Source: Candidatus Nomurabacteria bacterium
GTDB taxonomy: Bacteria; Patescibacteriota; Saccharimonadia; Saccharimonadales; JAGQNJ01
Assembly (NCBI GenBank): GCA_023898625.1
Contig: CP060231.1
Coordinates: forward strand, 276,258-340,257
DNA length: 64,000 nt
Direction: 5' to 3'
The notes below the pieces were generated by a model. It was not told the origin of the DNA. It made no database searches and saw nothing but the letters and a program-made list of their open reading frames with translations. Every line of letters starts with the position of its first letter. The first letter of the stretch is position 1. This document shows, piece by piece, positions 46,499 to 64,000 of the stretch. The position numbers were made by a program, and so were the translations under genes.

Positions 46499-48043
46499 AT
46501 GAATACCCAGCCAGGTTCACACTTTAAAAAACGAACACCTTTCATTATTGTTACGTTACTGGTTGGGATTGTTGGCTGTGTTATCCTGCTACAAAGCTAT
46601 GCTGCGGTCCCAAATCCTCCCTCCGTATATTTAACTCCAGAAAATACCGCCAATGGCCCTGGTAAGCAAGTAAGAATTCAAGTTAGAGAAAACAGCGGAA
46701 CAGCCGCAATAAACGCAACCGAGGTTGCTATTACATACCCTGCAAACTTGATAGAGTTTAATTCGTTTGATGACACCGGAAGTTTATTTTTGACTAAACC
46801 TGACCCTGTAATTACGAGCGGAAAAGTCGTCCTAAGTCGAGGTATTAACGCTGGTACCAGCAATTTAACAGGCGACCAACTAATAACTACTTTAGTCTTT
46901 ACAACAAAAACTTCGTCTGGAACCGCTAATCTTGCTATTGTTGCAAATGAAACTTCTGTACTTAACGCCACAACTTATCAAAACATTATTACAGGAAGTG
47001 GTCGAACCCAAGGCGCAAACGTAGTTGTCGATGCCACTCCGCCAACTGTATCGGTGACGGGTACATCAAATAATCAAGTTCTGTCTAGCAATTCTACTGT
47101 TCCTATAAATATCAATACTACAGATGCAACTGGCGCAACAAGACTAGATATACGTATTGATGGCAAAACTGTTTTGGCTCCAAATATAACCAGTCCAACC
47201 TACATCTTTCAATGGAATACGACTGGGTTAAGTATTGGCAACCATACTATCCAAGTTCTAGCTAGTGATTCATACGGTAATACTGGCCAATCTGCAATCA
47301 CTACGGTTTCTATTGCCGACAAGACACCACCAACAGTCGCCCTAACTGTACCATCAAGTCCACTAAAAGGTGTTGTTACGTTAAGTGCAACTGCTTCTGA
47401 TAGTGGCGGTTCTGGATTAAATAGAGTAGAGTTCTATGCTGGGTCAACCCTTATTGGTTCAGATAATACAAGCCCTTATCAAGTATCCTGGAATACTAAT
47501 GATGGAAAGTACGCCGATGGTTCATATAGTATCACAGCAAAAGCCTATGATAACGCCAACCCCTCGAACACTTCTACTAGTACACCATCTAATGTCACGG
47601 TTCAAAATACCGACAAAACACCTCCTTCAGCCCCAACAAATCTTAATGTTAAATCGGTCACCATGAATAGTGTCAATCTGGCTTGGAATGCTAGCTCTGA
47701 CAATGTTGGAGTAACGGGGTACCAAGTTAGTAGAAATGGTACGGTAATAAATACCGTAGCAGGAACATCATTTACAGACAACAACCTTACTCCAGGGACA
47801 AGCTATTCGTATTCTGTAGTTGCAATCGACGCAGGAGGCAATAAGTCCGCTCAAGTCAGCGTAAATGCAACAACTCTCGCTCAAAAGATCGGGGACTTCA
47901 ATCAAGATGGCAAAGTATACCTAGATGACCTAGCAGGACTGCTAGCAAATTGGAAAAAGGCAAATCCACTATACGACCTAGATAAGAAGGGGTCTGTTGA
48001 TATTGTTGACCTTGCTATATTCCTTGCAAACTATGGCAAGTAA
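46499..48043 (+). CDS. surface protein: cohesin-like domain, two Ig-like repeats, FN3 domain, C-terminal dockerin
   Basis: AGGAG RBS and a signal/TM segment. FN3 (PPSAPTNL...WNASSDNVGVTGYQV). Dockerin EF-hand-like duplicate (DFNQDGKVYLDDL ... DLDKKGSVDIVDL). Confidence 0.7.
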   Translation: MNTQPGSHFKKRTPFIIVTLLVGIVGCVILLQSYAAVPNPPSVYLTPENTANGPGKQVRIQVRENSGTAAINATEVAITYPANLIEFNSFDDTGSLFLTKPDPVITSGKVVLSRGINAGTSNLTGDQLITTLVFTTKTSSGTANLAIVANETSVLNATTYQNIITGSGRTQGANVVVDATPPTVSVTGTSNNQVLSSNSTVPININTTDATGATRLDIRIDGKTVLAPNITSPTYIFQWNTTGLSIGNHTIQVLASDSYGNTGQSAITTVSIADKTPPTVALTVPSSPLKGVVTLSATASDSGGSGLNRVEFYAGSTLIGSDNTSPYQVSWNTNDGKYADGSYSITAKAYDNANPSNTSTSTPSNVTVQNTDKTPPSAPTNLNVKSVTMNSVNLAWNASSDNVGVTGYQVSRNGTVINTVAGTSFTDNNLTPGTSYSYSVVAIDAGGNKSAQVSVNATTLAQKIGDFNQDGKVYLDDLAGLLANWKKANPLYDLDKKGSVDIVDLAIFLANYGK

Positions 48044-49950: not shown

Positions 49951-50157
49951 ATGAAAAACGAAGTTTTGCAATTCGGCAAAAAATTAAGAGAGATGCGCTT
50001 AAAAAAGAAGTTATCACAAGGCGATATGGCAAGAACTTTAGGCGTCCACCGGTCGTATATTAGTGGCTTAGAGCGCGGAAGGCGCAATCCTTCGCTTTTA
50101 ACTGTTCATAAGGTCGCTAAAGCCCTAGGGATTGCGCCTGATGAATTATTGAAATAA
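49951..50157 (+). CDS. XRE-family HTH transcriptional regulator
   Basis: 68 aa. LSQGDMARTLGVHRSYISGLERGRRNPSL is a canonical Cro/C1 HTH. Confidence 0.8.
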   Translation: MKNEVLQFGKKLREMRLKKKLSQGDMARTLGVHRSYISGLERGRRNPSLLTVHKVAKALGIAPDELLK

Positions 50158-50159
50158 TT

Positions 50160-50978
50160 ATGATTGAAAATTTTTACAAATTGGATAAAAGAGGTATTGC
50201 GGATTTGGTTCGTAATTTTGTGGAGCAAGATTTTTATTCGAAATTTCCTGAACTCAAAGACAGTGTTTCCATTGTTGCAACTGGTTCTGTGGCGACACAA
50301 AATTACGATCAATACAGTGATATTGATTTAGCAATAATTTTCCAAAACGCCGAAGAAGCTGGAAAGTATCTTCCAGTGATAAAAGAATACAAAAAGCATA
50401 TTCGCGAAATTAAGGAACCGATCCAAGTTCACAAGCCAACAACCTATGAGGAAATCGAGTCGGAGTTAACAACTTGGCAACAGGACAACTTACTGCGCGA
50501 ATACTCTCAAGCATTAGTAATAGAAGACCCAAATGATAGATTTCTCAAAATTCAGGAAAGGTTTTTGTACTATCCAGAGGAAATTTTTCAAGAAAAAATT
50601 TCCTGGCTCTTTGCCGAAACTACTTTTCAGATTAAAGAGCGGCTTGAAATTGCAGTAGCTCGTAAAGATATATATTTTTGCGAAGTGGTCAAAATGCAAA
50701 TTGTGAGACTTTTTCTGAACACACTGCTTCTTCTCAACAAAAAATGGCCCGCTTTTGATAAGCACCTCTATCAGGATGTTAGAAAAATGACGAAACAGTA
50801 TGATATATCAATCGTTGAGAAACTTATTGCTGAACAGGAGATTGAAAAGTTACTCCCATTGGTAAATCAGATAAAGGCGCAGTTAGAAAAACTGCTGCTT
50901 GAAGCAAATATAATAAAACATGAGACGGAGCAGTATTGGATAGATTTACGTCCTAAATATCAAATCAAACTTGGTTAA
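50160..50978 (+). CDS. Pol-beta-superfamily nucleotidyltransferase with helical C-terminal domain
   Basis: GS-x11-DIDL motif (ATGSVATQNYDQYSDIDLAIIF). Starts 2 nt after the XRE stop. Confidence 0.65.
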   Translation: MIENFYKLDKRGIADLVRNFVEQDFYSKFPELKDSVSIVATGSVATQNYDQYSDIDLAIIFQNAEEAGKYLPVIKEYKKHIREIKEPIQVHKPTTYEEIESELTTWQQDNLLREYSQALVIEDPNDRFLKIQERFLYYPEEIFQEKISWLFAETTFQIKERLEIAVARKDIYFCEVVKMQIVRLFLNTLLLLNKKWPAFDKHLYQDVRKMTKQYDISIVEKLIAEQEIEKLLPLVNQIKAQLEKLLLEANIIKHETEQYWIDLRPKYQIKLG

Positions 50979-50983
50979 AAACT

Positions 50984-51598
50984 ATGCCGAAAAAAGAGAT
51001 CATTCTAAAAAGTGGTAACACTATTATAAATTTTGACGAAGCGGATTTGCCCATGCTTATTCATGGAGCGGCCCACGCTGGCGCATCTCTCTTTTCGGTT
51101 ACGGCCATCGTAAATTTATTCCTAGCCGAAAGAAAGGTGTTATTTTTCACCGCATATCCAATGGCTAAGGAAGAATTTAGTGAGCAGATAAAAGACACTG
51201 ACAAAGAAAATAAGGTCTTTTATCTCCAGAACCATTCAGATATTAAAGAGGCGCACAAGTATGAGGTTGTTATCGTAAAAAGTGGTGATTCTGATTTATG
51301 TACGCAGACAATAAAAGCACTGTCGGATGTGGATGAAAGAATAATTTTTGTGAAGAACATTGAATCTATTTTAACGAAAGAGCTTTTTGAGGTTGTCTCA
51401 AGGTTTCAAAAAATTATTCTTTCGGGTGATTTAGACCAAGTTGAATTTAGAAATGAAATTGTAAAAATTGAATTTCTAACAAAGATTTTGTTCTCTACTT
51501 CAGAGATAGATTTGAAAGTGAAATTGCCCGAATTAGAAAAATACGTTGGCTTTATGAGTGGCAGACAATCAGGGCTGGTAACAACCCGTATTCCTTGA
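50984..51598 (+). CDS. hypothetical protein with degenerate P-loop-like motif
   Basis: 204 aa. HGAAHAGAS resembles a Walker A lacking the Lys. Later VVIV...D and IIFV hydrophobic strands. Confidence 0.45.
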   Translation: MPKKEIILKSGNTIINFDEADLPMLIHGAAHAGASLFSVTAIVNLFLAERKVLFFTAYPMAKEEFSEQIKDTDKENKVFYLQNHSDIKEAHKYEVVIVKSGDSDLCTQTIKALSDVDERIIFVKNIESILTKELFEVVSRFQKIILSGDLDQVEFRNEIVKIEFLTKILFSTSEIDLKVKLPELEKYVGFMSGRQSGLVTTRIP

Positions 51599-51609
51599 TA
51601 AATTGTTTT

Positions 51610-51740
51610 GAGCGGCGCGCCAACTTCGTTGGCACGAAATTGGGCGGCGGCGGAAAGCGAGGGCGGGCAAAAATTCCTTCCCCCCAACCCCCTTCCTTTT
51701 TGCCCGCCCGAGCGTTTCGGTTTTGCGCGCGAAGCGCGCA
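51610..51740. other. GC-rich noncoding segment with three consecutive hairpins
   Basis: GCCAAC-TTC-GTTGGC (51619-51633). A 13-bp stem GGGCGGGCAAAAA/TTTTTGCCCGCCC (51661-51673/51697-51709) with a 23-nt C-rich loop. GCGCGC-GAA-GCGCGC (51725-51739). Confidence 0.6.
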
Positions 51741-51870
51741 ATCATTCAGGGTTTTGCTCAAAGAAAGTTCGAACATCAATCAAAAACGACCGCCATATTA
51801 GAAATTTAGACATCATTCGCATGTATACACAGTAATAGCCGTTTAATAGTACAGGTTAGCCATTAATAAA

Positions 51871-52554
51871 TTAAGTTGTGTAACAAAAAACTATAGCATC
51901 GACTTTTCTGACGCCATTTTCTTTCAATACCTTGGTTGCTTCTGATAGTGTTGCACCGGTTGTGACCACATCATCAACCAATATAACGTGGCTTGGCGTA
52001 TCACCATCACCCGATTTATATCTGAAAGATCCCTTTATTTGCTGTTTTCTCAACGATCTATTTGACCCGACTTGGTGAATGTTGGTTGTTCTCCTTAGAA
52101 TATTCTCGACCTTAAGTCCGGTTTGCTTCGACAATTCATTAGCCAATATTACAGTCTGATCAAAACCACGCTGACGAATATGAGAGGGTATTGTAGGTAT
52201 CGGCACCAGGAATACCTCTTCTGAAGATGGGTAGTAGGGAAGAATGTTGGCCATCGACTTGGCAATTGGCAAACCAACATGACGTTTATAGCCAAATTTA
52301 AATGCTTTGATTAGTTGCTGATTGATGTCTTTGTACTCACCATAAACATACACCGCATTTAGTTTTGTGTTTTTGCGACACTTTATACATACTTTGTGGT
52401 CTTTTGTAATTGAGTGACACAAGAAACATCTACTAGGCAAGGGATCGTATTGTAACCTACAATTATCGCACCAAATTATTCCCTCACTATTACACTCTAG
52501 GCATACCTCTGGAGCTATAAAATCTAATATCCTGGTTAATATAGTTGTTGTCAT
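51871..52554 (-). CDS. comFC: ComF-family phosphoribosyltransferase-domain protein
   Basis: N-terminal Cys4 zinc-finger-like motifs. C-terminal PRTase motif ILVDDVVTTGATL. Confidence 0.8.
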   Translation of the reverse strand: MTTTILTRILDFIAPEVCLECNSEGIIWCDNCRLQYDPLPSRCFLCHSITKDHKVCIKCRKNTKLNAVYVYGEYKDINQQLIKAFKFGYKRHVGLPIAKSMANILPYYPSSEEVFLVPIPTIPSHIRQRGFDQTVILANELSKQTGLKVENILRRTTNIHQVGSNRSLRKQQIKGSFRYKSGDGDTPSHVILVDDVVTTGATLSEATKVLKENGVRKVDAIVFCYTT

Positions 52555-52680: not shown

Positions 52681-53184
52681 ATGGCGCGTAAGCAACGAGA
52701 TGATGATTTGTTGATGGAAGATGAGCTTACTGCCGCATTCTTGGGTGAGGATGAATTTGAAGAAACTGCGGTTATTCAAGAACAAGACACGGATCAAGAT
52801 CCACAACAAAACCAAACACCATTACCTGCTCAGGATGAATGGGATGAAGAGGAAGCTGTTCCTGGACAGCTAGCAGTAGACGTTTTTGAGACTAAAGAAA
52901 AACTTGTGGTTAAGGCTAGGACGGCCGGTGTAAACAAGCACGATCTTGATGTCAGTATTGCAGACAATACACTGAGCATCCGTGGAACATTATCAGCAGG
53001 GAATGAAGATGATGTAATTAATTATTTTGTGCAAGAATGTTATTGGGGAGAGTTTTCTCGTAGCCTAGCATTACCAATTGCCGTAAAAGAAGATGAAATT
53101 GAGGCAGTCCTAAAAGATGGTGTATTGACTATTTCTTTCACTAAAGTAAAACAAGATACCGTTAAAAAGATCCAGATTCAATAA
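52681..53184 (+). CDS. Hsp20/alpha-crystallin small heat-shock protein
   Basis: Acidic N-terminus followed by an alpha-crystallin domain (AVDVFETKEKLVVKA...GV.K.DLDVSI..N.L.I.G ... LP.). Confidence 0.85.
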   Translation: MARKQRDDDLLMEDELTAAFLGEDEFEETAVIQEQDTDQDPQQNQTPLPAQDEWDEEEAVPGQLAVDVFETKEKLVVKARTAGVNKHDLDVSIADNTLSIRGTLSAGNEDDVINYFVQECYWGEFSRSLALPIAVKEDEIEAVLKDGVLTISFTKVKQDTVKKIQIQ

Positions 53185-53267: not shown

Positions 53268-53672
53268 CTATGTAGTTGAAACTTTATTAAGAACAAACTT
53301 GACAATTACTTGAGCAAGAGCGACGATCACTAATCCAACTATCGCATAAAGAATAGTATTTTTTGCTCCACTGACGTTTCCAGAATCGCCCCCAGAAGTG
53401 ATGTACTTAAGCCCTCCGACGATTATCATAATAACCGAAACAACACCTACTATTAACGAAAATATATTGATAACGGTAGCTATTATGTCATTGACTGTAC
53501 CTTCTGCGCCACTTACATCACAGCTCTGATCGGTACTCAAACAGCTTCCTTGTTCAAGGCCTTGTTGAATATTTGGTGTTTGAGCATGAATACTCACCGG
53601 AATAGCTAGAGGTACTAGCGCTAAAGAAAGGCTGATGAGCCAGGCGTTTATTTTATTAGTTAACTTTTTCAT
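53268..53672 (-). CDS. T4SS pilin-like protein (TrbC/VirB2-like), paralog 6
   Basis: Signal peptide and a Cys pair (CLSTDQSC). Conserved C-terminal block GGLKYITSGGDSGNVSGAKNTILYAIVGLVIVALAQVIVKFV. Confidence 0.7.
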   Translation of the reverse strand: MKKLTNKINAWLISLSLALVPLAIPVSIHAQTPNIQQGLEQGSCLSTDQSCDVSGAEGTVNDIIATVINIFSLIVGVVSVIMIIVGGLKYITSGGDSGNVSGAKNTILYAIVGLVIVALAQVIVKFVLNKVSTT

Positions 53673-53749
53673 AATATTAGGTATTTTCCTTTCGTTATTG
53701 GATTAATTACACTTTACTATATTTTTATAAGCATTTTCAAGTAGTTATT

Positions 53750-54160
53750 CTATAATTTATTAAGAACAAATTTAACGATAGCTTGCGCCATAGCGACAAC
53801 CACCAATCCAATAATTGCATATAGGATGGTGTTTTTGGCGCCACTAACGTTAGCAGAATCGCCCTGAGATGTTATATATTTAAATCCACCAATTATTATC
53901 ATTATTACCGCTGTGATTCCCACTATCCAAGAAAAAATATTAATAACCGTGGCTATAGTACTGTTTATTTTTCCTTCTGTTGCACTAGAATCAGTAGTAC
54001 AACTACCTCCTGTTAGGGTAACACCCTGGCAAGCCGCTTCCTTCGGATCTAAGGCTCTTACTGAAGCTGTATGCAAGGATACACCCAAAAATGTCATGAC
54101 TAACATCAAAATAAAAATTGTCATTCTTATTCTCATAATCTTATCCTTTCGTTTAATCAT
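53750..54160 (-). CDS. T4SS pilin-like protein, paralog 5
   Basis: Same C-terminal block (GGFKYITSQGDSANVSGAKNTILYAIIGLVVVAMAQAIVKFV). The alternative start at 54136 has an AAAGGA RBS. Confidence 0.7.
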   Translation of the reverse strand: MIKRKDKIMRIRMTIFILMLVMTFLGVSLHTASVRALDPKEAACQGVTLTGGSCTTDSSATEGKINSTIATVINIFSWIVGITAVIMIIIGGFKYITSQGDSANVSGAKNTILYAIIGLVVVAMAQAIVKFVLNKL

Positions 54161-54546
54161 TATAGTCTAGTTATTACAAATGACACTATTGCTTGAGCTA
54201 TCACAACAACCACTAGGCCAATAATTGAGTACAGGATTGTGTCTTTTGCGGAACTAACTTTTCCGGAATCTCCATTCGACACCATATACTTGAAACCACC
54301 CACCATTATCATTATAACGCTGGCAACCCCTGCAATCATAATCATTATTTCTATAACCTTAGTAATTATTCCGTTTGGACCAAGTAGTGGGTTAGTGGTA
54401 GTGTGCGTCTGGCATGCGCTTGAACTGGAGCTACGACCACTGCAAACTCCTGAAAAAGGATCCTCAGCATAGGTTATTCTTGGATAAAAGACAATCAGCC
54501 CGATCAATAACCCTATTACAGTAATTACAAGTGTCAGCCTACTCAT
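54160..54546 (-). CDS. T4SS pilin-like protein, paralog 4
   Basis: GGFKYMVSNGDSGKVSSAKDTILYSIIGLVVVVIAQAIVSFV. Cys pair CSGRSSSSSAC. Confidence 0.7.
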   Translation of the reverse strand: MSRLTLVITVIGLLIGLIVFYPRITYAEDPFSGVCSGRSSSSSACQTHTTTNPLLGPNGIITKVIEIMIMIAGVASVIMIMVGGFKYMVSNGDSGKVSSAKDTILYSIIGLVVVVIAQAIVSFVITRL

Positions 54547-54845
54547 CCGAATACCCTCCCAATCACAAAAGATACAATTACATTTGCTAGAATAGCAACC
54601 ACCAGCCCGATCAAAGCATAAAGTATGGTGTTTTTAGCTTTGGCGGTCTTTTGAGGGTCTCCAGCAGAAAGTATATAGCTTATTCCTGCAATGATAATCA
54701 CGATAACCGCAACCACTCCTGCAATAGTAAATACCAACTGCAACAAGACCTCAATCTGTCCGTTTGTAGCTTCGGACTTAGGAATAACCAATTCGTTTGG
54801 GTTGGCTATACTTTCAGCAATATATTTTAAATACATGTCTATCAT
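54543..54845 (-). CDS. T4SS pilin-like protein, paralog 3 (short)
   Basis: AGISYILSAGDPQKTAKAKNTILYALIGLVVAILANVIVSFV. 4-nt overlaps with both neighbours. Confidence 0.65.
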   Translation of the reverse strand: MIDMYLKYIAESIANPNELVIPKSEATNGQIEVLLQLVFTIAGVVAVIVIIIAGISYILSAGDPQKTAKAKNTILYALIGLVVAILANVIVSFVIGRVFG

Positions 54846-55213
54846 TTTATGCTATTTCCGATAAATGACACTACAGAAGATGCAACAATAGCTACTACTA
54901 AACCAATTAGAGCATTCAATATGGTATCTTTAGCCCCCTTAGTTCGATCTGGCTCCCCATTGCTTGTCATGTATACAAAGCCTCCGTATATAATAAAACC
55001 AACCGACACAAACCCGACAACATAAAGCAGTATATCGATCCCCGCTAGGCCAATTCCCCATAAATCGTTAATCTGGTTGGGATCGAATGTTGGTACGCAT
55101 TTTCCTAAAGCATCAGTTTTACCATCAAGATATTCAAACCAATGCGGAAACCCAAAGAACGAGTTTGCTGAATCCATTGGATTACAGGCAAATATTTTAA
55201 ATAGACCGATCAA
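54842..55213 (-). CDS. T4SS pilin-like protein, paralog 2
   Basis: GGFVYMTSNGEPDRTKGAKDTILNALIGLVVAIVASSVVSFI. Confidence 0.65.
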   Translation of the reverse strand: MIGLFKIFACNPMDSANSFFGFPHWFEYLDGKTDALGKCVPTFDPNQINDLWGIGLAGIDILLYVVGFVSVGFIIYGGFVYMTSNGEPDRTKGAKDTILNALIGLVVAIVASSVVSFIGNSIK

Positions 55214-55908
55214 AATGCACCCCCTGGTATCAGGTATTGAATAAACGCATAAAGGAAGAAATATGCTACTAAAGCAATTATAGCATTAGTAATTTTTCCT
55301 TTGGCGGCCTGCACAGCCTGTGGATTTTGACCTGCAGATGCATACTGAATCCCACCAACAATAATCATAATCGTTACTACAACACCAACGCCAATGGATA
55401 GAAAATTCATCGCCATTTTCGTGTATTTAACAAGTGGGTTATCCTTTATACATGACGGGGAGTCACAGTTCACGATCTTGTCACGATCTTTATCGGTATA
55501 TACTGACGTTGTATCAAAGTTAGTATTATCATCGTTATTCTTGGCGGAGTTAGTATTGTTTTTAGATGCAACTGCGTTTTCTTGAACAACTTGAGACATA
55601 GGCTTGGCATTAATATATTCATTAATCTCACAGTTAACTTCGTTACCCTTCTTGGTGGCATCGGATCCCCAGGCATAACATTTAGTATTGCTTTCTAAGG
55701 GATTCGGCAGACCTTTCATATTAAAACCCATGTTCTTTAAGTTCTGATAATCACAACTATCTAGCTTAACGATCTGGTTTCCCTCACTAATTCGCACAAA
55801 ACAACCACTCACAGCACTTACGGTTGCTTTAGTCGCCACAAAACATCCCAAAATAGCGATAATATAAACTAGTGTAGCGCCCAATCTTTTATTAAGTAGT
55901 TTGCCCAT
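55210..55908 (-). CDS. T4SS pilin-like protein, paralog 1, with extended Cys-containing N-terminal domain
   Basis: Signal peptide and a ~150-aa Cys-containing domain. C-terminal block GGIQYASAGQNPQAVQAAKGKITNAIIALVAYF. Confidence 0.6.
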   Translation of the reverse strand: MGKLLNKRLGATLVYIIAILGCFVATKATVSAVSGCFVRISEGNQIVKLDSCDYQNLKNMGFNMKGLPNPLESNTKCYAWGSDATKKGNEVNCEINEYINAKPMSQVVQENAVASKNNTNSAKNNDDNTNFDTTSVYTDKDRDKIVNCDSPSCIKDNPLVKYTKMAMNFLSIGVGVVVTIMIIVGGIQYASAGQNPQAVQAAKGKITNAIIALVAYFFLYAFIQYLIPGGAF

Positions 55909-55914
55909 GATAAA

Positions 55915-56394
55915 TTATGCCTCTATCCTGATAGCTTCTATTTTATCACTGTTTATTATCTCTAGGTTTACACTATTACCATCTCTTGTTTGGCAATTAT
56001 AATAATGGCTCGTCTTGCTTTGTTCGCCCTGTTTCGTCTCTGTTTCTTTGCAAGTAGCAAAATCAATACTACCTCTTAAGCGCAGTAATGCACCTACGGC
56101 CATTGTCTGGTTTGATTGCAGATCATCAGACAATAGTTCCCTAGCTTTCGCCAGATTAACCTCATCCACTGTCGACATTGCTTGAAGAAACTGCACATTG
56201 GCAGATGCATTCGGATCAATGTTAGCCACTTTTTGTTGCTTGTTGTTTCCAAAGATAACTCCAAATGCTGTGATAATCAACAGAAGAATCAACATAATGC
56301 CCAAGATTTTCACCTTCGTAGAAACCCTGTTCTTTACCGGTACGCTAGGTTGCTGATTTATGAAATCAAAATTCAAATCTGTTTTTTGAGCCAT
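55915..56394 (-). CDS. hypothetical single-pass membrane protein, first gene of the pilin operon
   Basis: 159 aa. TM (ILGIMLILLLIITAFGVIF). Confidence 0.5.
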   Translation of the reverse strand: MAQKTDLNFDFINQQPSVPVKNRVSTKVKILGIMLILLLIITAFGVIFGNNKQQKVANIDPNASANVQFLQAMSTVDEVNLAKARELLSDDLQSNQTMAVGALLRLRGSIDFATCKETETKQGEQSKTSHYYNCQTRDGNSVNLEIINSDKIEAIRIEA

Positions 56395-56486
56395 CTTCGT
56401 ATATTATACAAAAAATATGGTTTATTACATTACTAATAAATCACCAGTAATGATATATTGTAACTACAGATTCAAGAATAAATACC

Positions 56487-57347
56487 ATGAAAACACCAGC
56501 ATACATAATAAGAAAGAATATATTCGTCGCGGTTTTATGTTCTTTAGTGAGCGCTTCTGTACTATCAATATTATTTCAACCAGTTACCATTTATGCTGCC
56601 GATATAGAATTCGAAAAGTCGGTTGAATACAAGATTATTGAGGATTGCTCCAAAACAAACGACCCACAATGCATTTACAAACATTGGGGAGGAAACACAA
56701 ATATGATACAGGCAGGAAATGAATGTCAATACAAAAAAGAACCCCAAAGATGCAGAGATAGCAAATTGCTTGCGTTAGAAATTAATGCAAAGTACCGCCC
56801 CAAACAAAACACAAATCCAGAATCTGAACAAGAAGATCAAAGCAACCCTATTGAAAATTCCTATCCAAACACCAAGTGCTTTACGGCACTTGGAGGGGTT
56901 TTGCAAGAAAAGCTTTGCCCTAAAGATGCCACATACCCAAATGGAAACCCCCCAGAGACAAATAAGTGTTATGGATCACAGGTAACTGAAGATAATAATA
57001 GGCCTTTGTATGAAGAAGTTGATTGTGATAAAAGTAAATTTTCTGTTGGTGCGTATGGTGAAGAAAAGAAAGAAGATGAAAGTAATCCTTCAGAATGCCA
57101 ACAACGCATGAAACTAAGTGCTGGCTGGATTGTGTGTAGTGGGTTAGAGTTACTTTCTAGTGGCATGGATACTTTGTTTGGCTATATAGATAGTTTGTTG
57201 AATGTTAACGTAATAAAACTGAATGCTTCTGATGATCAGGGGTTATATAAGTCTTGGTCATATTTTAGGGGTATAGCTACGTTTATGTTGTTTGCTGTAG
57301 GTTTAGTTATGATTATTGGTCAGGCTGTTGGGGGAGGGAAGAATTAA
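56487..57347 (+). CDS. Cys-rich secreted protein with C-terminal membrane-anchor module (T4SS-associated)
   Basis: Signal peptide and many Cys residues. The C-terminal 78 aa are identical to those of the next gene. Confidence 0.6.
   Translation: MKTPAYIIRKNIFVAVLCSLVSASVLSILFQPVTIYAADIEFEKSVEYKIIEDCSKTNDPQCIYKHWGGNTNMIQAGNECQYKKEPQRCRDSKLLALEINAKYRPKQNTNPESEQEDQSNPIENSYPNTKCFTALGGVLQEKLCPKDATYPNGNPPETNKCYGSQVTEDNNRPLYEEVDCDKSKFSVGAYGEEKKEDESNPSECQQRMKLSAGWIVCSGLELLSSGMDTLFGYIDSLLNVNVIKLNASDDQGLYKSWSYFRGIATFMLFAVGLVMIIGQAVGGGKN
57108..57341 (+). repeat. 234-bp direct repeat, copy 1 (pairs with 58321-58554)
   Basis: Hand alignment gives 5 mismatches in 234 nt. All are transitions and all are synonymous. 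Confidence 0.9.
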
Positions 57348-57411
57348 TATATATTGCTATTAAGGTAAGCTATAAACTATAATGAACAATGTTAACTAAA
57401 CTGCTAAAGCT

Positions 57412-58557
57412 TTGAATAAAACTATATCTTTACTTTTTTTAATTCTTTTTTCAATGTCAATGACATTTGGGTTTATATCACCGTATGTTATAAGTAGTGT
57501 CCGTGCTCAAGAAGCCACACTAACTGATACTCTATCAAGAGAAGCGAGGCTTTATACCGTTACTAACGCATTGGTCGCATGTTTTCAGGGTCAAACGGGC
57601 GAGGGATTAAGTTCCGAAACTACCACAAATAACCTAAGTTCGGAATTACCAGTCTTTATTAATCAAAAGGTATTTGTTGGACATCATGTTAAGCCAAGTG
57701 ACGGCAACGCAAATTGCAATGACGCTTCCTGGGTGTCAAGCGCCGTGAACATGGTAGGGTTTTCTAGTAATACAGCCTTTATGAATCTCTTTTATGAAAA
57801 AAATAGCGGAAACTTTTGGCAACTTAAAGTCCCGGTTGCATCTGGAGAGGTCAATGTCATTAACCAGTTTTTAAATAAATCAATCGAAGGTGGCAACACA
57901 ACTGTGACATGTACGCCTAAGAATGGATGTACAGTCAGCATATCAGATGCCGCAAAATATGTACTTTATCTAGAAAACCTCAAAAAGGGTTGTGGCGCAA
58001 CCGAAGTCAATAATGAAGACGATATTAATAGTATTGATGAAGACAAAAAGGCGGTCATTAAAGTTCCTAACGCTAATGCTATCCTGGAAGAAAAAGTCTA
58101 TAAAATGGATAAAGGTAAGGGGAAGTTTATAGATGTTGGTCAAGGTCTTGCACAAGACGGAAACTTATCGTGCGGAACATTAATTGACAAGATAAACCAG
58201 TATGCATCTGGCTTTAATGATAGACTGGTGCAAGCTAAAAACAACAATCAAGACATCGGAGACCTTTCTTCACTAACAAGCACTGGCTCTGGTGAAAATG
58301 AAGAAAGTTGTGAAGAGCGTATGAAACTAAGTGCTGGCTGGATTGTATGTAGTGGGTTAGAGTTACTTTCTAGTGGCATGGATACTTTGTTTGGCTATAT
58401 AGATAGTTTGTTGAATGTTAACGTAATAAAACTGAATGCTTCTGATGATCAGGGATTATACAAGTCTTGGTCATATTTTAGAGGTATAGCTACATTTATG
58501 TTGTTTGCTGTAGGTTTAGTTATGATTATTGGTCAGGCTGTTGGGGGAGGGAAGTAA
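57412..58557 (+). CDS. secreted protein with the same C-terminal membrane-anchor module (T4SS-associated)
   Basis: TTG start and a signal peptide. The N-terminal ~300 aa are unrelated to the previous gene; the C-terminal 78 aa are identical. Confidence 0.6.
   Translation: MNKTISLLFLILFSMSMTFGFISPYVISSVRAQEATLTDTLSREARLYTVTNALVACFQGQTGEGLSSETTTNNLSSELPVFINQKVFVGHHVKPSDGNANCNDASWVSSAVNMVGFSSNTAFMNLFYEKNSGNFWQLKVPVASGEVNVINQFLNKSIEGGNTTVTCTPKNGCTVSISDAAKYVLYLENLKKGCGATEVNNEDDINSIDEDKKAVIKVPNANAILEEKVYKMDKGKGKFIDVGQGLAQDGNLSCGTLIDKINQYASGFNDRLVQAKNNNQDIGDLSSLTSTGSGENEESCEERMKLSAGWIVCSGLELLSSGMDTLFGYIDSLLNVNVIKLNASDDQGLYKSWSYFRGIATFMLFAVGLVMIIGQAVGGGK
58321..58554 (+). repeat. 234-bp direct repeat, copy 2
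   Basis: See copy 1. Confidence 0.9.
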
Positions 58558-60278
58558 TGTTTGATGCCTATACTATCAAAAAAGTATTGCCAAGATTGGT
58601 TATAGCCGTGATCTTAATTCAATTATCTTGGCCACTAATAACCACCTTGATAAATGTTATTAATCAAGTATCTTGGGGTTTAGAAGGACTCATGTATTTG
58701 CCTTTTGGAGGTAGAGATGCGTTAGATATAGGAGTAACTCTTGAGAAGGCTGGTGGAGGTGGTACCTTTGCTGGATTATTACTAGGTGGTGGGGCATATC
58801 TTTTGGCGGGTGCGCCTGGAGCTCTGGCTTTAGCCGTTGGTATTTTAGTAGCTTTAGTTGTTGCGTTCTTTACTTTAGCTATTAGACAAATTATTATTAT
58901 TGCCCTGGTATTGACAGCTCCGTTGGCACTTGTGGCATGGATATTACCCAACACAGAAGGATTCTTTAAGTTTTGGTGGAGCACGCTCAGCAAGGCTCTA
59001 CTAATGTATCCAATTATTTTACTACTTGTAGCGGCAGGTAGAATTGGCGCGCACCTAGTTGTGGCGACTGATCTGCCCTCGGGCGTACAAACTATCTTGG
59101 CAATCATTATATTCTTTGCACCATTATTCTTAATATCTAAGACTTTCCAATACGCTGGTGGGGCGATTGGAGCTGTTGCCAACGTTGTTGGCTCTAAGGG
59201 TTCAAAAATTACCGGTTGGGCAGGCAAACGCTCTACGGCCAAGCAAGGACAAAAATGGGGTGCTCGTAAAGAAAAATTCCAGTCAGGTGGCTATGGGTCT
59301 GATAAAAATATGTTTACTCGTGGCTTAAGAAGGGCTGGGCAAATGTCTGGGCAGTCAGTTTGGACTGGTTATGGCATGACAGGGAAAGGTAAACAAAGGA
59401 TGGCTCTTGCCTCCAGCGCATCTGCTAACGAACTTCTCAAGGATGGAAAGTTTGTTGAAGCTACCTACGATGATGATGCCAGACTTGCGCTTCAGCTTGG
59501 TAGCGAAAAAGCTGCACGAGCCACACTTCTCGCAAACGCAGAAAGAAAAGCTCGAAGCGAAGGAAGAAGTGTCCGAGCAGACGAACTAGCTAAAATTGAT
59601 AAAAGTATTAATGCAGCAAAGGCTGTTGGATTCAATTCCCACACTCAGCTTGCTGCCCTAAAAGCCGAGGCATCGAACAAAGGCCGAAACTACAAAGGTT
59701 TGGCTGGGATCGATGAGCTTAATAGCAGAATTGATGCAGTGGCGGCAGCTACTGGCGTTAATGCAGAAGACTTGCGGAGCGAAGTTACATATGGCATGCG
59801 TACCCAAGGTGGGAGATTTGATCTTGGTGCACTTGACTCAAGCAAGTCAGCATCCGAACAAGCAATTGCAGGATGGAACAAAGGTTCTCTCTATCAACAC
59901 GCTGGCTCACAAGCCAACTCCTTTGATACTATACATGAAGCGTTTCTCGATCGTGGTGACGATGATGCTCTTGCAGTATTTCACGAAGAATCACAGGCCA
60001 TTCTACCAAACGCAACCGGAGATGTAGCTGGAAAAATCGAAGAGGTCGTGGGAGATGGCAGTAGCACACATCACCGTGTTGAAGCACACTATGAAGCAGG
60101 ACCCAAAAAGGATGTACATCCAAAGATGCAAGAGACAACAACCAATCCAACAACTGGCGCTCAAGAAACTAGGGTGGTTGAAGATCCTACAAGAACAGTT
60201 ACAGTACGAGAAAAAGAAGCAGAAGCCAAACAAAATGCAAGAACATACAAGTCTCAAAACCCTAATGAAATGGAGTAG
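58557..60278 (+). CDS. VirB6/TrbL-like polytopic T4SS membrane protein
   Basis: About 6-7 TM segments in the N-terminal 230 aa, then a long hydrophilic C-terminal tail. Position within the T4SS operon supports the call. Confidence 0.55.
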   Translation: MFDAYTIKKVLPRLVIAVILIQLSWPLITTLINVINQVSWGLEGLMYLPFGGRDALDIGVTLEKAGGGGTFAGLLLGGGAYLLAGAPGALALAVGILVALVVAFFTLAIRQIIIIALVLTAPLALVAWILPNTEGFFKFWWSTLSKALLMYPIILLLVAAGRIGAHLVVATDLPSGVQTILAIIIFFAPLFLISKTFQYAGGAIGAVANVVGSKGSKITGWAGKRSTAKQGQKWGARKEKFQSGGYGSDKNMFTRGLRRAGQMSGQSVWTGYGMTGKGKQRMALASSASANELLKDGKFVEATYDDDARLALQLGSEKAARATLLANAERKARSEGRSVRADELAKIDKSINAAKAVGFNSHTQLAALKAEASNKGRNYKGLAGIDELNSRIDAVAAATGVNAEDLRSEVTYGMRTQGGRFDLGALDSSKSASEQAIAGWNKGSLYQHAGSQANSFDTIHEAFLDRGDDDALAVFHEESQAILPNATGDVAGKIEEVVGDGSSTHHRVEAHYEAGPKKDVHPKMQETTTNPTTGAQETRVVEDPTRTVTVREKEAEAKQNARTYKSQNPNEME

Positions 60279-60286
60279 GTTAATAA

Positions 60287-61243
60287 ATGGCGCAGTATAA
60301 AGTAATTCAAGATATCGAATCAGAAGACAAGCTACTTGGTCCGTTAAGCTTGCGACAATTTATCTACGCGGCGATCACTATCGCTCTGGGTTTTGTAGCT
60401 TTTAAGTTATTTATTAGTAGTGCTTGGTTTTTAGGCATAGTTTTTGTTCCGCCAGCACTATTTTTTGGCTTGTTAGCAGCGCCACTAGGTGGGCAACAAT
60501 CTTCTGAAATTTGGTTGCTAGCCAAAATACGTTTTTTTATTATGCCACGCAAACGAATTTGGGATCAATCTGGTATTCAGCAATTAGTCACCATAACAGC
60601 CCCTAAAAAGGTCGAAAAACAACTTACTAAAGGTTACAGTCAAGATGAGGTCAAGAGTCGCTTAAGAACACTGTCAGCCACCTTAGATACTAGAGGTTGG
60701 GCAGTAAAAAATGCCACCAATATGTATGCTGTTGGACAGAACCAATCTAGTGACAGACTTTTTGAGATAGACACGCAGGATATTCCGTCAATCAGCACAG
60801 AGCCAACTGCCGATATGCTAGACCCCACCACCAGCCCCAGAGCTCAAGCTATGGATCAGATGATTAACAAATCCGCCCAGGAGCACAAGCAACAAATAGA
60901 AGAAAACCTTAAAAAATATTCTCAAAAGCTGTCTAACCAAACCAGGGTTGCGCCACCATCAGAACAACAAGAGCAAGATCTTCTCAAGAAAATTCATGCT
61001 CAGCAATCACAGCCTAGTGAATTTAATAGTCGTTTAAAAACCATTAACCCGATCGGGGACCAACAAACTCAAATCACAAAAACTCAAAGTCCTGTCCATT
61101 CACCAGTGACACCAACGACCGACCCTGCTATACTAAATCTTGTCGAGAATAGCGAAGGACTTTCTGTTAGAACTATTGCACACGAGGCTGAACGCCTCAA
61201 GAAGCGCGATGATGACGATGAGGTTGTTATTTCGCTTCATTAG
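60287..61243 (+). CDS. PrgI/VirB3-like T4SS membrane protein
   Basis: The N-terminal pattern Y.V..DIE.EDKLLGPLSLRQFIY followed by two TMs is typical of the PrgI family. Q-rich C-terminal extension. Confidence 0.55.
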   Translation: MAQYKVIQDIESEDKLLGPLSLRQFIYAAITIALGFVAFKLFISSAWFLGIVFVPPALFFGLLAAPLGGQQSSEIWLLAKIRFFIMPRKRIWDQSGIQQLVTITAPKKVEKQLTKGYSQDEVKSRLRTLSATLDTRGWAVKNATNMYAVGQNQSSDRLFEIDTQDIPSISTEPTADMLDPTTSPRAQAMDQMINKSAQEHKQQIEENLKKYSQKLSNQTRVAPPSEQQEQDLLKKIHAQQSQPSEFNSRLKTINPIGDQQTQITKTQSPVHSPVTPTTDPAILNLVENSEGLSVRTIAHEAERLKKRDDDDEVVISLH

Positions 61244-61279
61244 TTTGACGATAGTCATCGCTGGTGGGCAAAACAACAC

Positions 61280-62155
61280 ATGAATCCAGATCAGAATCAA
61301 CCACAATACCCCATACAAACTCCAGCCAGTCCTGGCGCTCAAGCATACCCCCAACCAGGGATGGTATCGCCCCTCAACAATCAGCAAAATACCCCACCCA
61401 ACCAACAAACCTTTGCTAACACCAAAACCAACCCTAATAGCACCCAGAATACTCTACAGTTTGCTGAAATTCGTGATGGAATAGTAATCATGAACGATGG
61501 TTCATTCCGTTCAGTTATCATGCTAAAATCTATTAACTTTGATTTAATGAGCCCCCAGGAAAGAGAAGCAGTCGAGGCTGCCTATCAAAACTTCTTGAAC
61601 TCGTTATACTTTGATGTTCAAATATTTATCCGCTCTGAGCGAATCGATATTCGTCCTTATATTGAAAGATTAGACAAAATTAGGAGCGAGCACGACAACA
61701 TGCTTCTAGCCATGTTAATGGAAGATTATATTGGGTTTATTACAGAAGTATCGATGCAGACTAATATTATGGACAAACGATTTTACTTAGTTATTCCATT
61801 TTATGCTAAAGCTGATGTTAAGAAAGCAATTACTCAGAGTAAAAACTTCTTTACTGGATTAACTAATCTGTTCAACAATAAAGAACAGCATGTCGTGGTG
61901 AATGAAGCAGATCTAGGAGCGGCCAAAAGCGAGTTAAGAAATCGCATTCAAGCAGTATTGGCTAGTTTGCAACAATGTGGTGTGCAGGGTGTTCCCTTAG
62001 ATACTCAAGAATTAATCGAACTGTATTACGATACTTACAACCCTGACACTGCAACACGTCAACAGTTAAAGAATTTTGATGATTTAGCCGTACCAGTCGT
62101 AACTAAGGGCGAGGGTCACGCCCCTCAACCTAATTTAGATAAGGAGCTTAGATAA
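61280..62155 (+). CDS. hypothetical protein resembling a VirB4 N-terminal domain (no ATPase domain)
   Basis: After a P/Q-rich N-terminus, the segment LQFAEIRDGIVIMNDGSFRSVIMLKSINFDLMSPQERE resembles the start of Gram-positive VirB4-like proteins. Confidence 0.35.
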   Translation: MNPDQNQPQYPIQTPASPGAQAYPQPGMVSPLNNQQNTPPNQQTFANTKTNPNSTQNTLQFAEIRDGIVIMNDGSFRSVIMLKSINFDLMSPQEREAVEAAYQNFLNSLYFDVQIFIRSERIDIRPYIERLDKIRSEHDNMLLAMLMEDYIGFITEVSMQTNIMDKRFYLVIPFYAKADVKKAITQSKNFFTGLTNLFNNKEQHVVVNEADLGAAKSELRNRIQAVLASLQQCGVQGVPLDTQELIELYYDTYNPDTATRQQLKNFDDLAVPVVTKGEGHAPQPNLDKELR

Positions 62156-64000
62156 TGGCCTTCGGCAAAAAACAACAACCACTTGACCCGGTAGCTATTG
62201 CCCAACAACAAGCAATGCGCGAACAACAAGAGGTTAACACAGCTTTTCAAAAAGGTGTGACTGCTCTTCGTGATTTTATTGCCCCGAGTTCATTGGAGTT
62301 TAATTCTTCGTATTTCCAAATCGGAACAAGGCATGCTAGAACATTTTATGTTTTCGGTTACCCTAGACAGCTTTATACCGGATGGCTGAGTAGCTTGATA
62401 AACATTGATGAGATTATTGATATGTCTATGTTCATCTACCCGGTTGAAAGCCAGGTGGTGTTAGAGAACCTTCGCAAAAAGGTTAGCCAATTAGAGGCTG
62501 GCTTACAAATTGATGCCGAGAAGGGAAGGGTTCGTGACCCAGGCAAGCAGGCAGCCATTGTGGATGCTGAAGAAATGCGAGACAAACTTCAAGTTGGTGA
62601 AGAACGGTTCTTTAGGTTTGGCTTTTACTTTACGATTTACGCTAGTAGCCTTGATGAATTAGAATTCGTAACGCATAAAATTGAATCACTTCTTGGCCAA
62701 CAGTTAGTTTATTCTAAGCCCGCGACTTCACAACAAGAACAGGGCTTGAGTAGTACAGTTCCACAATTCACCGATCAGCTTCAAATTAAACGAAACATGA
62801 GCACTGGAGCATTGAGCACTACCTTTCCGTTCACTAGTGCCGACCTTACCCAAGAAAACGGCATTATGTATGGCATAAACATGCATAACTCTGGCTTGGT
62901 GATTTTTGATCGATTTAGCCTAGAAAACAGTAACGCGGTAGTTTTTGCAAAATCCGGTGCCGGGAAATCCTTCACTGTTAAACTTGAAGCTTTGCGAAGT
63001 ATGATGTTTGGAACAGAAGTTGTGATTATAGATCCGGAAAACGAATATCAACGCATGGCCGAAGCTGTTGGTGGTGCATATGTACGTCTTAGCCTAAACT
63101 CCTCAACGCGCATTAATCCTTTTGATTTACCAAGAGTAGTCGACACCGAAGAAGCTGACAATGCACTGCGTAGCAACTTAATCACACTACATGGTTTATT
63201 ACGATTAATGATGGGTGGCGCTCAAGCTCAAATGCAATCTGGGGGTGGCATGGTTGCCCCCGCTCTTAGCCCTGTAGAAGAAGCCGATCTGGACGCCGCC
63301 TTGATTGAAACTTATGCCAAAGCCGGAATCACCAATGACCCCCTAACACACAACTCACCACCACCAACAATAAACGACCTCTATGATACGCTTCTACATA
63401 TGGGTGGAACGGGGCCTCAGCTTGCTCAAAGATTAAGGAAGTACACTAGTGGTACATTCGCTGGTATTTTCTCTCAGCAATCAAATATTGACATCAATAA
63501 TCAGTTAGCTGTGTTTAATATCCGCGATCTTGAAGATGAGCTACGACCAGTAGCAATGTATATAGTACTGAATTTCATATGGAACAGAACAAAAGCAGAC
63601 AAAAAGAAACGTATTTTAATCGTAGACGAGGCGTGGCAACTAATGAAGTATGAAGACTCTGCTAATTTTATGTTTAGCCTAGCAAAACGAGCTCGTAAGT
63701 ATAATCTAGGCATCACAACTATAACTCAGGATGTGGAAGATTTCATGGGAAGTCGAATGGGGCGAGCGATTGTTGCTAACTCATCACTACAAATACTACT
63801 CAAGCAATCGCCTTCTGCGGTTGATGTTTTAGCCGATGTTTTTAAGTTAACAAGTGAGGAACGAAAACGACTCAGTCAGTTCCCGGTTGGTCAAGGATTA
63901 TTTTTTGCCGGACAAAATCATGTTCATATTCAAATTATGGCTAGCCCAACCGAGACTCAGCTAATCACCACCAACCCAAAACAAGTTCAACAAATTCAGG
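62155..64000 (+). CDS. virB4: VirB4/TrbE/PrgJ-like T4SS ATPase, partial (continues beyond the right window edge)
   Basis: ATG overlaps the upstream TAA. My translation gives Walker A AKSGAGKSFTVK (around 62950) and Walker B RILIVDEAWQL (around 63610). Absent from the ORF track because no stop lies in the window. Confidence 0.85.
   Translation, partial: MAFGKKQQPLDPVAIAQQQAMREQQEVNTAFQKGVTALRDFIAPSSLEFNSSYFQIGTRHARTFYVFGYPRQLYTGWLSSLINIDEIIDMSMFIYPVESQVVLENLRKKVSQLEAGLQIDAEKGRVRDPGKQAAIVDAEEMRDKLQVGEERFFRFGFYFTIYASSLDELEFVTHKIESLLGQQLVYSKPATSQQEQGLSSTVPQFTDQLQIKRNMSTGALSTTFPFTSADLTQENGIMYGINMHNSGLVIFDRFSLENSNAVVFAKSGAGKSFTVKLEALRSMMFGTEVVIIDPENEYQRMAEAVGGAYVRLSLNSSTRINPFDLPRVVDTEEADNALRSNLITLHGLLRLMMGGAQAQMQSGGGMVAPALSPVEEADLDAALIETYAKAGITNDPLTHNSPPPTINDLYDTLLHMGGTGPQLAQRLRKYTSGTFAGIFSQQSNIDINNQLAVFNIRDLEDELRPVAMYIVLNFIWNRTKADKKKRILIVDEAWQLMKYEDSANFMFSLAKRARKYNLGITTITQDVEDFMGSRMGRAIVANSSLQILLKQSPSAVDVLADVFKLTSEERKRLSQFPVGQGLFFAGQNHVHIQIMASPTETQLITTNPKQVQQIQ

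Follow-up and report, generated by a model that had tools for sequence, protein, structure and literature searches.

The 64,000-nt stretch of DNA from Candidatus Nomurabacteria bacterium which was analyzed here (contig CP060231.1, positions 276,258 to 340,257; in the following the window, to whose positions all coordinates refer) contains at 53268-64000 a locus for a type IV secretion system (T4SS). Six VirB2-like pilin genes (between 53268 and 55908, minus strand), together with a gene for a 159-aa membrane protein at the head of their operon (55915-56394, minus strand), diverge from a plus-strand operon encoding a 286-aa and a 381-aa exported protein, a VirB6-like protein, a PrgI/VirB3-like protein, a TrsD-like protein of 291 aa and a VirB4 ATPase. 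Both operons are separated by an AT-rich region of 92 bp (56395-56486), which presumably holds their promoters. This divergent arrangement, proposed in an initial annotation made from the sequence alone, was recovered to the nucleotide, and so were all open reading frames (ORFs) listed there. The GC content of the locus is the same as that of the remaining window. A scan for promoters and terminators yielded 33 promoter sites with 30.2 being expected, which is chance level. For comparison, public loci carrying homologous genes were fetched, which are numbered L001, L002 and so on.

All six pilins matched the Pfam family PF18895 (T4SS_pilin) with E-values ranging from 4e-16 to 4e-7, and the pilins also matched the NCBIfam family NF045849 (Mbov_0395 pilin-like family). 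Pilin 1 (53268-53672, 134 aa; PF18895 E 6.3e-13, NF045849 E 1.8e-7) comprises a signal peptide and a two-helix hairpin, exhibits three hydrophobic segments and contains 2 Cys. Pilin 2 (53750-54160, 136 aa; PF18895 E 6.3e-13) is 60% identical to pilin 1, while pilin 3 (54160-54546, 128 aa; PF18895 E 1.3e-10) additionally matched TrbC (PF04956) with 28.7 bits, which is above the cutoff. Pilin 4 (54543-54845, 100 aa; PF18895 E 4.3e-16), which contains no Cys, reached 52.5 bits for NF045849 (cutoff 40). Pilin 5 (54842-55213; PF18895 E 3.5e-8) has a length of 123 aa if translation begins at a TTG; gene-calling programs assign 111 aa to it (54842-55177), as in L001 and L002. The largest protein of the array, pilin 6 (55210-55908, 232 aa), carries a Cys-rich N-terminal extension of about 140 aa, contains 7 Cys and matched PF18895 at residues 171-225 (E 4.3e-7).

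On the plus strand, the PrgI/VirB3-like protein (60287-61243, 318 aa) matched PF12666 at residues 5-91 (E 4.8e-9) and possesses a long C-terminal extension; it was found in 81 of 86 loci. The VirB4 gene (62155-64000) is cut by the end of the window. The complete protein comprises 653 aa, ends 116 nt past the window, contains the Walker-type motifs GAGKS and ILIVDEAW and matched P-loop_TraG (E 3.7e-27) as well as the CD1110 family (NF045971, 367 bits). The identities which had been proposed for the pilins, PrgI and VirB4 are hence all borne out by profile searches.

The 291-aa protein encoded directly upstream of VirB4 (61280-62155, plus strand) had been described as resembling only the N-terminal domain of VirB4, and as unusual. 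The resemblance holds, but the protein is not unusual, as it belongs to the TrsD family and its gene is present in 85 of the 86 loci. It matched CD1110 (E 6.7e-8), TrsD/TraD (NF041427, E 8.5e-7) and TIGR00929 as well as, in precomputed annotations, PF26593. Three independent profiles are covered by the 291-aa protein and the ATPase in a complementary manner: positions 2-134 and 180-735, respectively, of the 752 positions of CD1110 (with a cutoff of 325 bits for the 367 bits of the ATPase), positions 95-253 and 292-893 of the 894 positions of VirB4_plasma (NF045975), and positions 19-173 and 211-731 of the 792 positions of TIGR00929. Both genes overlap stop-to-start at 62155, and the 291-aa protein contains no P-loop. 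In its AlphaFold model, the block means of the predicted local distance difference test (pLDDT) lie between 70 and 89 for most of the stretch from residue 60 to 250, which is interrupted by a loop of low confidence (186-204). The top 14 matches of this model against the PDB (Foldseek) were all chains of cryo-electron microscopy entries of the R388 T4SS, whose lengths, together with the titles of the entries, point to TrwK/VirB4; the next match was far weaker. Because of the complementary coverage of the three profiles and the R388 fold match, the 291-aa protein is identified as the split-off N-terminus of VirB4, so that both proteins together form a split VirB4, and not an extra copy of the N-domain. 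No similarity between the 291-aa protein and VirB4 was found by BLASTP, and hhalign of the two lineage alignments, which are shallow (effective number of sequences about 2), gave no signal. This lack of similarity follows from both being different parts of one protein and not duplicates.

The second protein which occurs in two pieces is VirB6. A polytopic core with about six transmembrane (TM) helices (residues 1-240) and a hydrophilic C-terminal tail make up a 573-aa protein (58557-60278, plus strand), which is preceded by the 381-aa protein (57412-58557, plus strand) with a signal peptide, an ectodomain and a first TM helix. In most relatives with the region in view both are collinear with one single ORF of 800-1300 aa (e.g., L083 5184-8033), and BLASTP alignments of the joined 954-aa sequence cross the 381/573 junction without interruption. 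For these two reasons the 381-aa protein appears to be the exported N-terminal module of an extended VirB6 together with its first membrane helix, which has become detached from the core. At the junction (GGGAAGTAATG) the TAA stop overlaps the ATG start (TAATG, 58555-58559), an arrangement of translational coupling; where the window reads GGGK*MFDAYTIKK, a fused relative reads GVGPFDAYTIRK. A sequencing frameshift or assembly error as origin of the split was considered and rejected, because the same split is present in three other species (L007, L008, L052); it is also present in independent assemblies which are 100% identical to the window.

The initial annotation of the 573-aa protein as VirB6-like agrees with its topology, its position in the operon and a precomputed Pfam match (PF19590, TrbL_3). 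Local profile searches did not reach significance. Local Pfam searches yielded only TrbL_4 at E-values of 0.2-0.9, and nothing significant for the core, the joined construct, a fused homologue or a 610-aa allele. TrbL was matched by 4 of 44 members of the VirB6 family (best E 8.5e-4), a profile of these 44 relatives gave only chance matches against PDB sequences, and searches of NCBIfam with VirB6, PrgI and both N-terminal modules yielded no match. The orthologues in Southlakia epibionticum have been annotated as VirB6 on the basis of structure (PMC10633639, tables).

The sequence beyond the window could be followed on public contigs of the same species. The exact 291-aa protein was found on many of them, and one of these (L002) matches the window with 100% identity along 12.7 kb. 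VirB4 is followed by a protein of 1003 aa with a C-terminal VanY domain (E 9e-12), a 629-aa hydrolase with an Amidase_3 domain (E 3e-10) and weak transglycosylase-like and NlpC/P60 matches, a 205-aa PEGA protein and an exported protein of 203-215 aa, after which recF and dnaN are located on the other strand. Cell-wall hydrolases for the role of VirB1, for which the initial annotation had suggested a search downstream, are therefore present just past the window. The position of this hydrolase slot 3′ of VirB4 is conserved, while its domains differ between species (L012 6414-7805, L051 14720-17122, L070 15147-17636, L001 15858-17747), with the contents being Phage_lysozyme2 and GDSL, or SLT and M23, or Amidase_3 and NlpC/P60.

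The initial annotation had also reported that no relaxase, coupling protein or integrase was in view, and had named their appearance immediately downstream as a sign of an ordinary integrative and conjugative element (ICE). None of the three was found in the precomputed Pfam annotations of the 64-kb window, which show only housekeeping genes outside the locus, and none was found in the 7.4 kb past the end of the window on the identical contigs. Furthermore, no relaxase or coupling protein was found among the recurrent or Walker-A-containing neighbouring ORFs scanned in 80 species, a scan which did not include most singleton ORFs. No inverted repeats of at least 14 bp within 60 nt were found, although the absence of an oriT does not follow from sequence alone.

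A comparison across the lineage showed that the layout of the locus is not specific for this genome. From 571 matched stretches with VirB4 relatives in a collection of species-representative genomes the best 80 were compared, all of which are Saccharibacteria/Saccharimonadales-type metagenome-assembled genomes with a VirB4 being 81-96% identical. Across these about 80 species the recurrent order is comFC, hsp20, pilins, VirB6, PrgI, TrsD-like protein, VirB4, hydrolases and recF. Apart from these genes, the neighbours found most often are dnaN (60 loci), dnaA (47 loci) and alternative hydrolases (Phage_lysozyme2, GDSL, SLT, M23). Identities between species decrease from VirB4 (81-96%) over the TrsD-like protein (57-84%) and PrgI (33-73%) to VirB6 (25-46%), with the pilins covering a broad range (22-75%). 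As the locus occupies a fixed place by dnaA/dnaN/recF in about 80 species, it is core, origin-proximal chromosomal DNA and not an ICE or another mobile element; that it is chromosomal had already been supposed in the initial annotation. It is extremely improbable that it represents a decayed or domesticated ICE which still transfers DNA with a relaxase and a coupling protein encoded elsewhere. Such an origin would fit with the VirB4 belonging to the conjugative CD1110 family above the curated cutoff and with its nearest plasmid relatives being conjugative-type systems of monoderms. Homologues of the type IV coupling protein (T4CP) are moreover encoded elsewhere in many Patescibacteria genomes, according to a survey of this group (PMC12102498). 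However, not only are position and gene order fixed, but the 81-96% identity of VirB4 across species implies strong purifying selection on a core gene. In addition, no integrase was found in the window and the 7.4 kb past its end, there is no att-like repeat or compositional break, and among the 3,035 genomes of that survey only 103 yielded a relaxase.

The same system has already been described in a cultivated relative. In S. epibionticum ML1 (SEML1_0004-0021) the same blocks occur in the same order and orientation as in the window, as a mirror image. Both share dnaA-dnaN-recF, a small exported protein, a PEGA protein, a multi-domain hydrolase, a protein of about 1000 aa with a C-terminal DD-peptidase and VirB4, followed by a TrsD-like protein of about 290 aa, PrgI, the extended VirB6, six pilins, hsp20, comFC and a tRNA-Ser, the latter being adjacent in S. 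epibionticum and about 2 kb further out in the window. Differences concern VirB6, which is encoded by two full-length genes in S. epibionticum (998 and 1088 aa) and here by one split gene plus a 286-aa paralogue of the N-terminal module only, and an NTF2-like protein, which has 159 aa and is encoded on the pilin strand here but has 278 aa and lies between the two VirB6 genes there. The hydrolase carries Amidase_3 and weaker NlpC/P60 and transglycosylase-like domains here, and two lysozyme-like domains and a cysteine peptidase in S. epibionticum. According to transposon sequencing (Tn-seq), S. epibionticum cannot grow as an epibiont without this cluster, which contains pilins but lacks a coupling protein and a relaxase (Wang et al., 2023; PMC10633639), and nearly all genes of the mirrored layout were called essential (PMC10633639). 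According to the literature, no earlier T4SS had been reported as essential for its carrier, and no other T4SS of monoderms has a pilin array.

Quinonero-Coronel et al. (2025; PMC12102498), whose survey covered 3,035 genomes of Patescibacteria, place a Patescibacteria clade of VirB4 inside MPF-FATA in their tree. They list TrsD beside virB4, PrgI, VirB6 and pilin arrays, of which VirB2 arrays of 2-11 genes are abundant in Saccharimonadia, and they report that relaxases are nearly lacking and that the system lies close to dnaA/dnaN. In nothing essential does the locus differ from that clade as it is presented there. There, comF near the T4SS is reported mainly for the class ABY1, whereas comFC is a conserved neighbour in Saccharimonadales here; fissions of VirB4 or VirB6 are not mentioned in the sections considered. 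The system as such is thus already described, and what is new are the details of its gene architecture and their variation.

Regarding its ancestry, the locus probably derives from monoderm conjugation machinery of the MPF-FATA type, resembling CD1110 and pGO1, without relaxase and coupling protein in the locus itself. A CD1110-family VirB4, a PrgI-type VirB3 and multi-domain hydrolases are features of MPF-FATA systems which are found here, and the nearest plasmid-encoded VirB4s are those of monoderms (Actinomycetota and Bacillota; 29-40% identity). With the staphylococcal plasmids pGO1/pSK41 (TrsD/TraD and TrsE/TraE) and CTn2 of C. difficile (CD1110) the locus shares a VirB4 above the CD1110 cutoff, a PrgI-type VirB3 and multi-domain cell-wall hydrolases, and its 291-aa protein matches TrsD/TraD. 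However, those systems are plasmid- or ICE-borne and encode a relaxase and a coupling protein, whereas the locus here has neither and carries six pilins in addition. A plasmid of Embleya shows the conjugative arrangement and contrasts with the locus, as VirB6-like protein, PrgI and VirB4 are directly followed by a T4CP, a relaxase-like gene and an NlpC/P60 protein. The gene order of the locus recurs on an 898-kb replicon of Pontibacillus sp. ALD_SL1 (NZ_CP062975.1 351801-361354; L090 7483-17036). It encodes two pilin-like proteins, which in best pairs are 38-40% identical to those of the window, a protein of 779 aa, VirB3/TraL-like (116 aa) and TrsD-like proteins (274 aa; 29% identity, E 1e-29), a VirB4 with 36% identity and a DD-metalloendopeptidase of 1050 aa; within 12 kb, the annotation lists neither a T4CP nor a relaxase. 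It differs in belonging to a Firmicute, in its location on a large secondary replicon beside flagellar genes and in having only two pilins. Because this Firmicute module with the same order carries pilins, the comparison tentatively suggests that the pilins may have come with the monoderm ancestor and were not co-opted later. VirB4-driven systems without a VirD4-type coupling protein or a relaxase are also known from diderms, namely ComB of H. pylori, Ptl of Bordetella and VirB of Brucella. However, these belong to the MPF-T type and contain VirB7, VirB9 and VirB10, whereas the locus here is of monoderm type and lacks these genes.

Taken together, the locus very probably encodes the core, origin-proximal chromosomal T4SS of a Saccharimonadales bacterium, with each gene being orthologous to its counterpart in SEML1_0004-0019, which would form a host-directed pilus or conduit and would not serve conjugation. 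Judged from the genetics of the relative, this machine would be required when the bacterium grows on its host. Docked on PrgI and VirB6, VirB4 would extract pilins from the membrane and polymerise them to a pilus or a short conduit, while the hydrolases would open the cell wall, that of the bacterium itself and possibly that of the host. Both pilin extraction and peptidoglycan opening are drawn from established T4SS biology. The resulting structure would transport proteins or small molecules as part of the epibiotic relation to the host bacterium, with the hypervariable ectodomain of VirB6 being its putative host-facing part.

Several points weigh against this interpretation. To our knowledge, no pilus has been seen in this lineage. 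The assignment of VirB6, for which the PF19590 match, the TrbL matches in 4 of 44 relatives, the topology of about six TM helices, the position and the annotation in S. epibionticum speak, is weak by sequence, and the only VirB8-like candidate, the 159-aa protein, is weak and not conserved. A homologue of the coupling protein may be encoded elsewhere in the genome; such homologues are common in Patescibacteria, but located far from virB4 and non-essential in S. epibionticum, as stated in the survey (PMC12102498). Finally, the function of these systems is described as completely unknown in a perspective of 2024 and a review of 2025, which speculate about effector delivery, uptake of DNA or nucleotides, or a pilus acting as conduit.

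Alternatively, the locus might encode a machine for DNA uptake like ComB of Helicobacter or the archaeal Ced system. Together with the adjacent comFC (51871-52554, minus strand; Pribosyltran and DZR_2), it would import host DNA as a source of nucleotides. Indeed, comFC is a conserved neighbour (25 of 86 loci), relaxase and T4CP are lacking as in ComB, VirB4 exhibits weak NCBIfam matches to CedB (E 2e-15) and CedD (E 7.5e-8), and the idea has been raised in the literature. Nevertheless, comFC of S. epibionticum (SEML1_0021) is non-essential (PMC10633639, tables), and a comEC deletion is viable despite the loss of competence, whereas the T4SS is essential, so that the essential role of the latter is not exerted via ComEC-dependent uptake. 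Competence in that organism relies on type IV pili, and the adjacency of comFC is perhaps plain synteny, with hsp20 standing on the opposite strand between comFC and the pilins. DNA uptake is therefore regarded as unlikely.

It is also quite unlikely that the system only assembles a surface filament or adhesin, i.e., that VirB4 builds an attachment pilus through which no substrate passes. The fact that all six pilins are essential in the relative, the lack of a substrate-recruiting ATPase in the locus and the variability of the VirB6 ectodomain would all be in agreement with such a filament. Yet, adhesion to the host and motility have already been assigned to type IV pili in this group, and the large tail of VirB6 and the two giant hydrolases are poorly explained by adhesion alone.

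The two proteins described initially as modular secreted proteins are indeed encoded by the predicted ORFs and carry signal peptides. The 381-aa protein is the putative N-terminal module of VirB6, and the 286-aa protein (56487-57347, plus strand), which consists of a signal peptide, a Cys-rich ectodomain and a conserved C-terminal membrane segment, is its paralogue. The last 86 aa of both are 94% identical, whereas their ectodomains are unrelated. At the nucleotide level this corresponds to a direct repeat of 242 nt (57100-57341 and 58313-58554, plus strand; 97% identity), which encodes the membrane docking segment and suggests duplication and gene conversion between both genes. No homologue of the 286-aa ectodomain was found in the loci of other species, and the gene is absent in the nearest species (L007 and L008). 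The 159-aa protein is absent there as well, and both are recent, species-specific additions.

Other contigs of this species match the window at 99.5-100% identity, with two exceptions. One is a cassette in the tail of VirB6 (59254-60286, plus strand), in which the window (573-aa allele) and L001 (610-aa allele) share no nucleotide similarity, with both flanks being 99.5-100% identical. The other is the ectodomain of the 381-aa protein (57566-58254), which is divergent in one strain (L004; 52% identity, with 67% amino acid identity over the whole protein). In the loci of the other 80 species each VirB6 tail has at most one weak homologue (24-29% identity) and the ectodomains have zero or one weak homologue, whereas homologues of the docking segment and of the membrane core are present in these loci. 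A joint reading of these observations, which is rather doubtful and put forward only tentatively, is that the extended VirB6 acts as a specificity module and is itself modular in this species, with the N-terminal module being a separate polypeptide. Under this reading, the docking helix is probably kept 97% identical by gene conversion, and since it is common to the 286-aa and the 381-aa protein, either ectodomain could plug into one VirB6 core. Both the ectodomain and the tail of VirB6, which comprises roughly 330 aa and is probably cytoplasmic, are swapped as cassettes between strains of the species. The tail might even serve as a substrate receptor in place of the missing coupling protein.

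The 159-aa protein at the head of the pilin operon is a bitopic membrane protein with an ectodomain that is modelled as NTF2-like, with three helices and a four-stranded sheet (AlphaFold, AF2; residues 61-159, pLDDT 83-93). Foldseek matched this model to NTF2/SnoaL folds and to VirB8 chains of R388, Brucella and Bartonella (8rtd_b E 0.023; 5jbs; 4nhf), with the VirB8 chains having E-values of 0.02-0.3 and no match falling below 1e-3. A search of NCBIfam gave no match, and only three clusters of homologues were found. A role as core VirB8 was considered and downgraded, given these weak fold matches and the absence from the closest species. The protein is therefore at most a weak VirB8-like candidate, a species-specific accessory, and the only such candidate that the search for VirB8-like genes suggested by the initial annotation provided. 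The NTF2-like SEML1_0012 of S. epibionticum is non-essential (PMC10633639, tables).

Cysteines are almost confined to the exported proteins of the system. The pilins (except pilin 4), the N-terminal modules, the 159-aa protein and the hydrolases contain 2-12 Cys each, while VirB6, PrgI and VirB4 contain none and the TrsD-like protein one. This distribution is compatible with extracellular disulfides, but does not establish the link, suggested initially, to a dsbB gene in the window. The latter encodes a DsbB of 166 aa beside a 390-aa Pyr_redox_2 flavoprotein at about 1122-2804, roughly 50 kb from the locus. Saccharibacteria are generally described as lacking a respiratory chain.

As reported initially, the locus is flanked by comFC and by hsp20 (52681-53184, plus strand; PF00011), the latter being a neighbour in 41 of the 86 loci. 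In S. epibionticum hsp20 (SEML1_0020) is essential (PMC10633639, tables). From synteny both genes can be regarded as conserved flanks, which does not demonstrate membership in the machine. Between the tRNA-Ser pair and comFC, the window encodes at 49951-51598 a helix-turn-helix protein (68 aa), a nucleotidyltransferase (272 aa; NTP_transf_2/DUF4037) and a protein of 204 aa without matches. In S. epibionticum the tRNA-Ser directly follows comFC (PMC10633639, tables), so that these three genes possibly represent a small insertion. Between convergent genes at 51605-51745, about 140 bp form a GC-rich island with long hairpins (GGGCGGGCAAAAA...TTTTTGCCCGCCC; GCGCGCGAAGCGCGC). It has no match in Rfam and a folding z-score of only -1.46; a function as bidirectional terminator is possible. 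A gene located some 5 kb upstream of the T4SS locus (46499-48043) encodes a likely surface adhesin of 514 aa, which contains Big_7, Big_3_3 and fn3 repeats.

For further work, the fact that VirB4 and VirB6 each occur naturally as two pieces offers a guide to domain boundaries in the design of constructs, and the relaxase-less module of Pontibacillus, a member of the Bacillota, may be easier to study experimentally than its counterpart in Saccharibacteria. The swaps of VirB6 cassettes among strains mark those parts which are most likely under host-driven selection, and, if the tail of VirB6 is indeed a substrate receptor, such swaps at the strain level would alter host range or cargo. The T4SS described here probably underlies the way in which these ultrasmall epibionts exploit their hosts.

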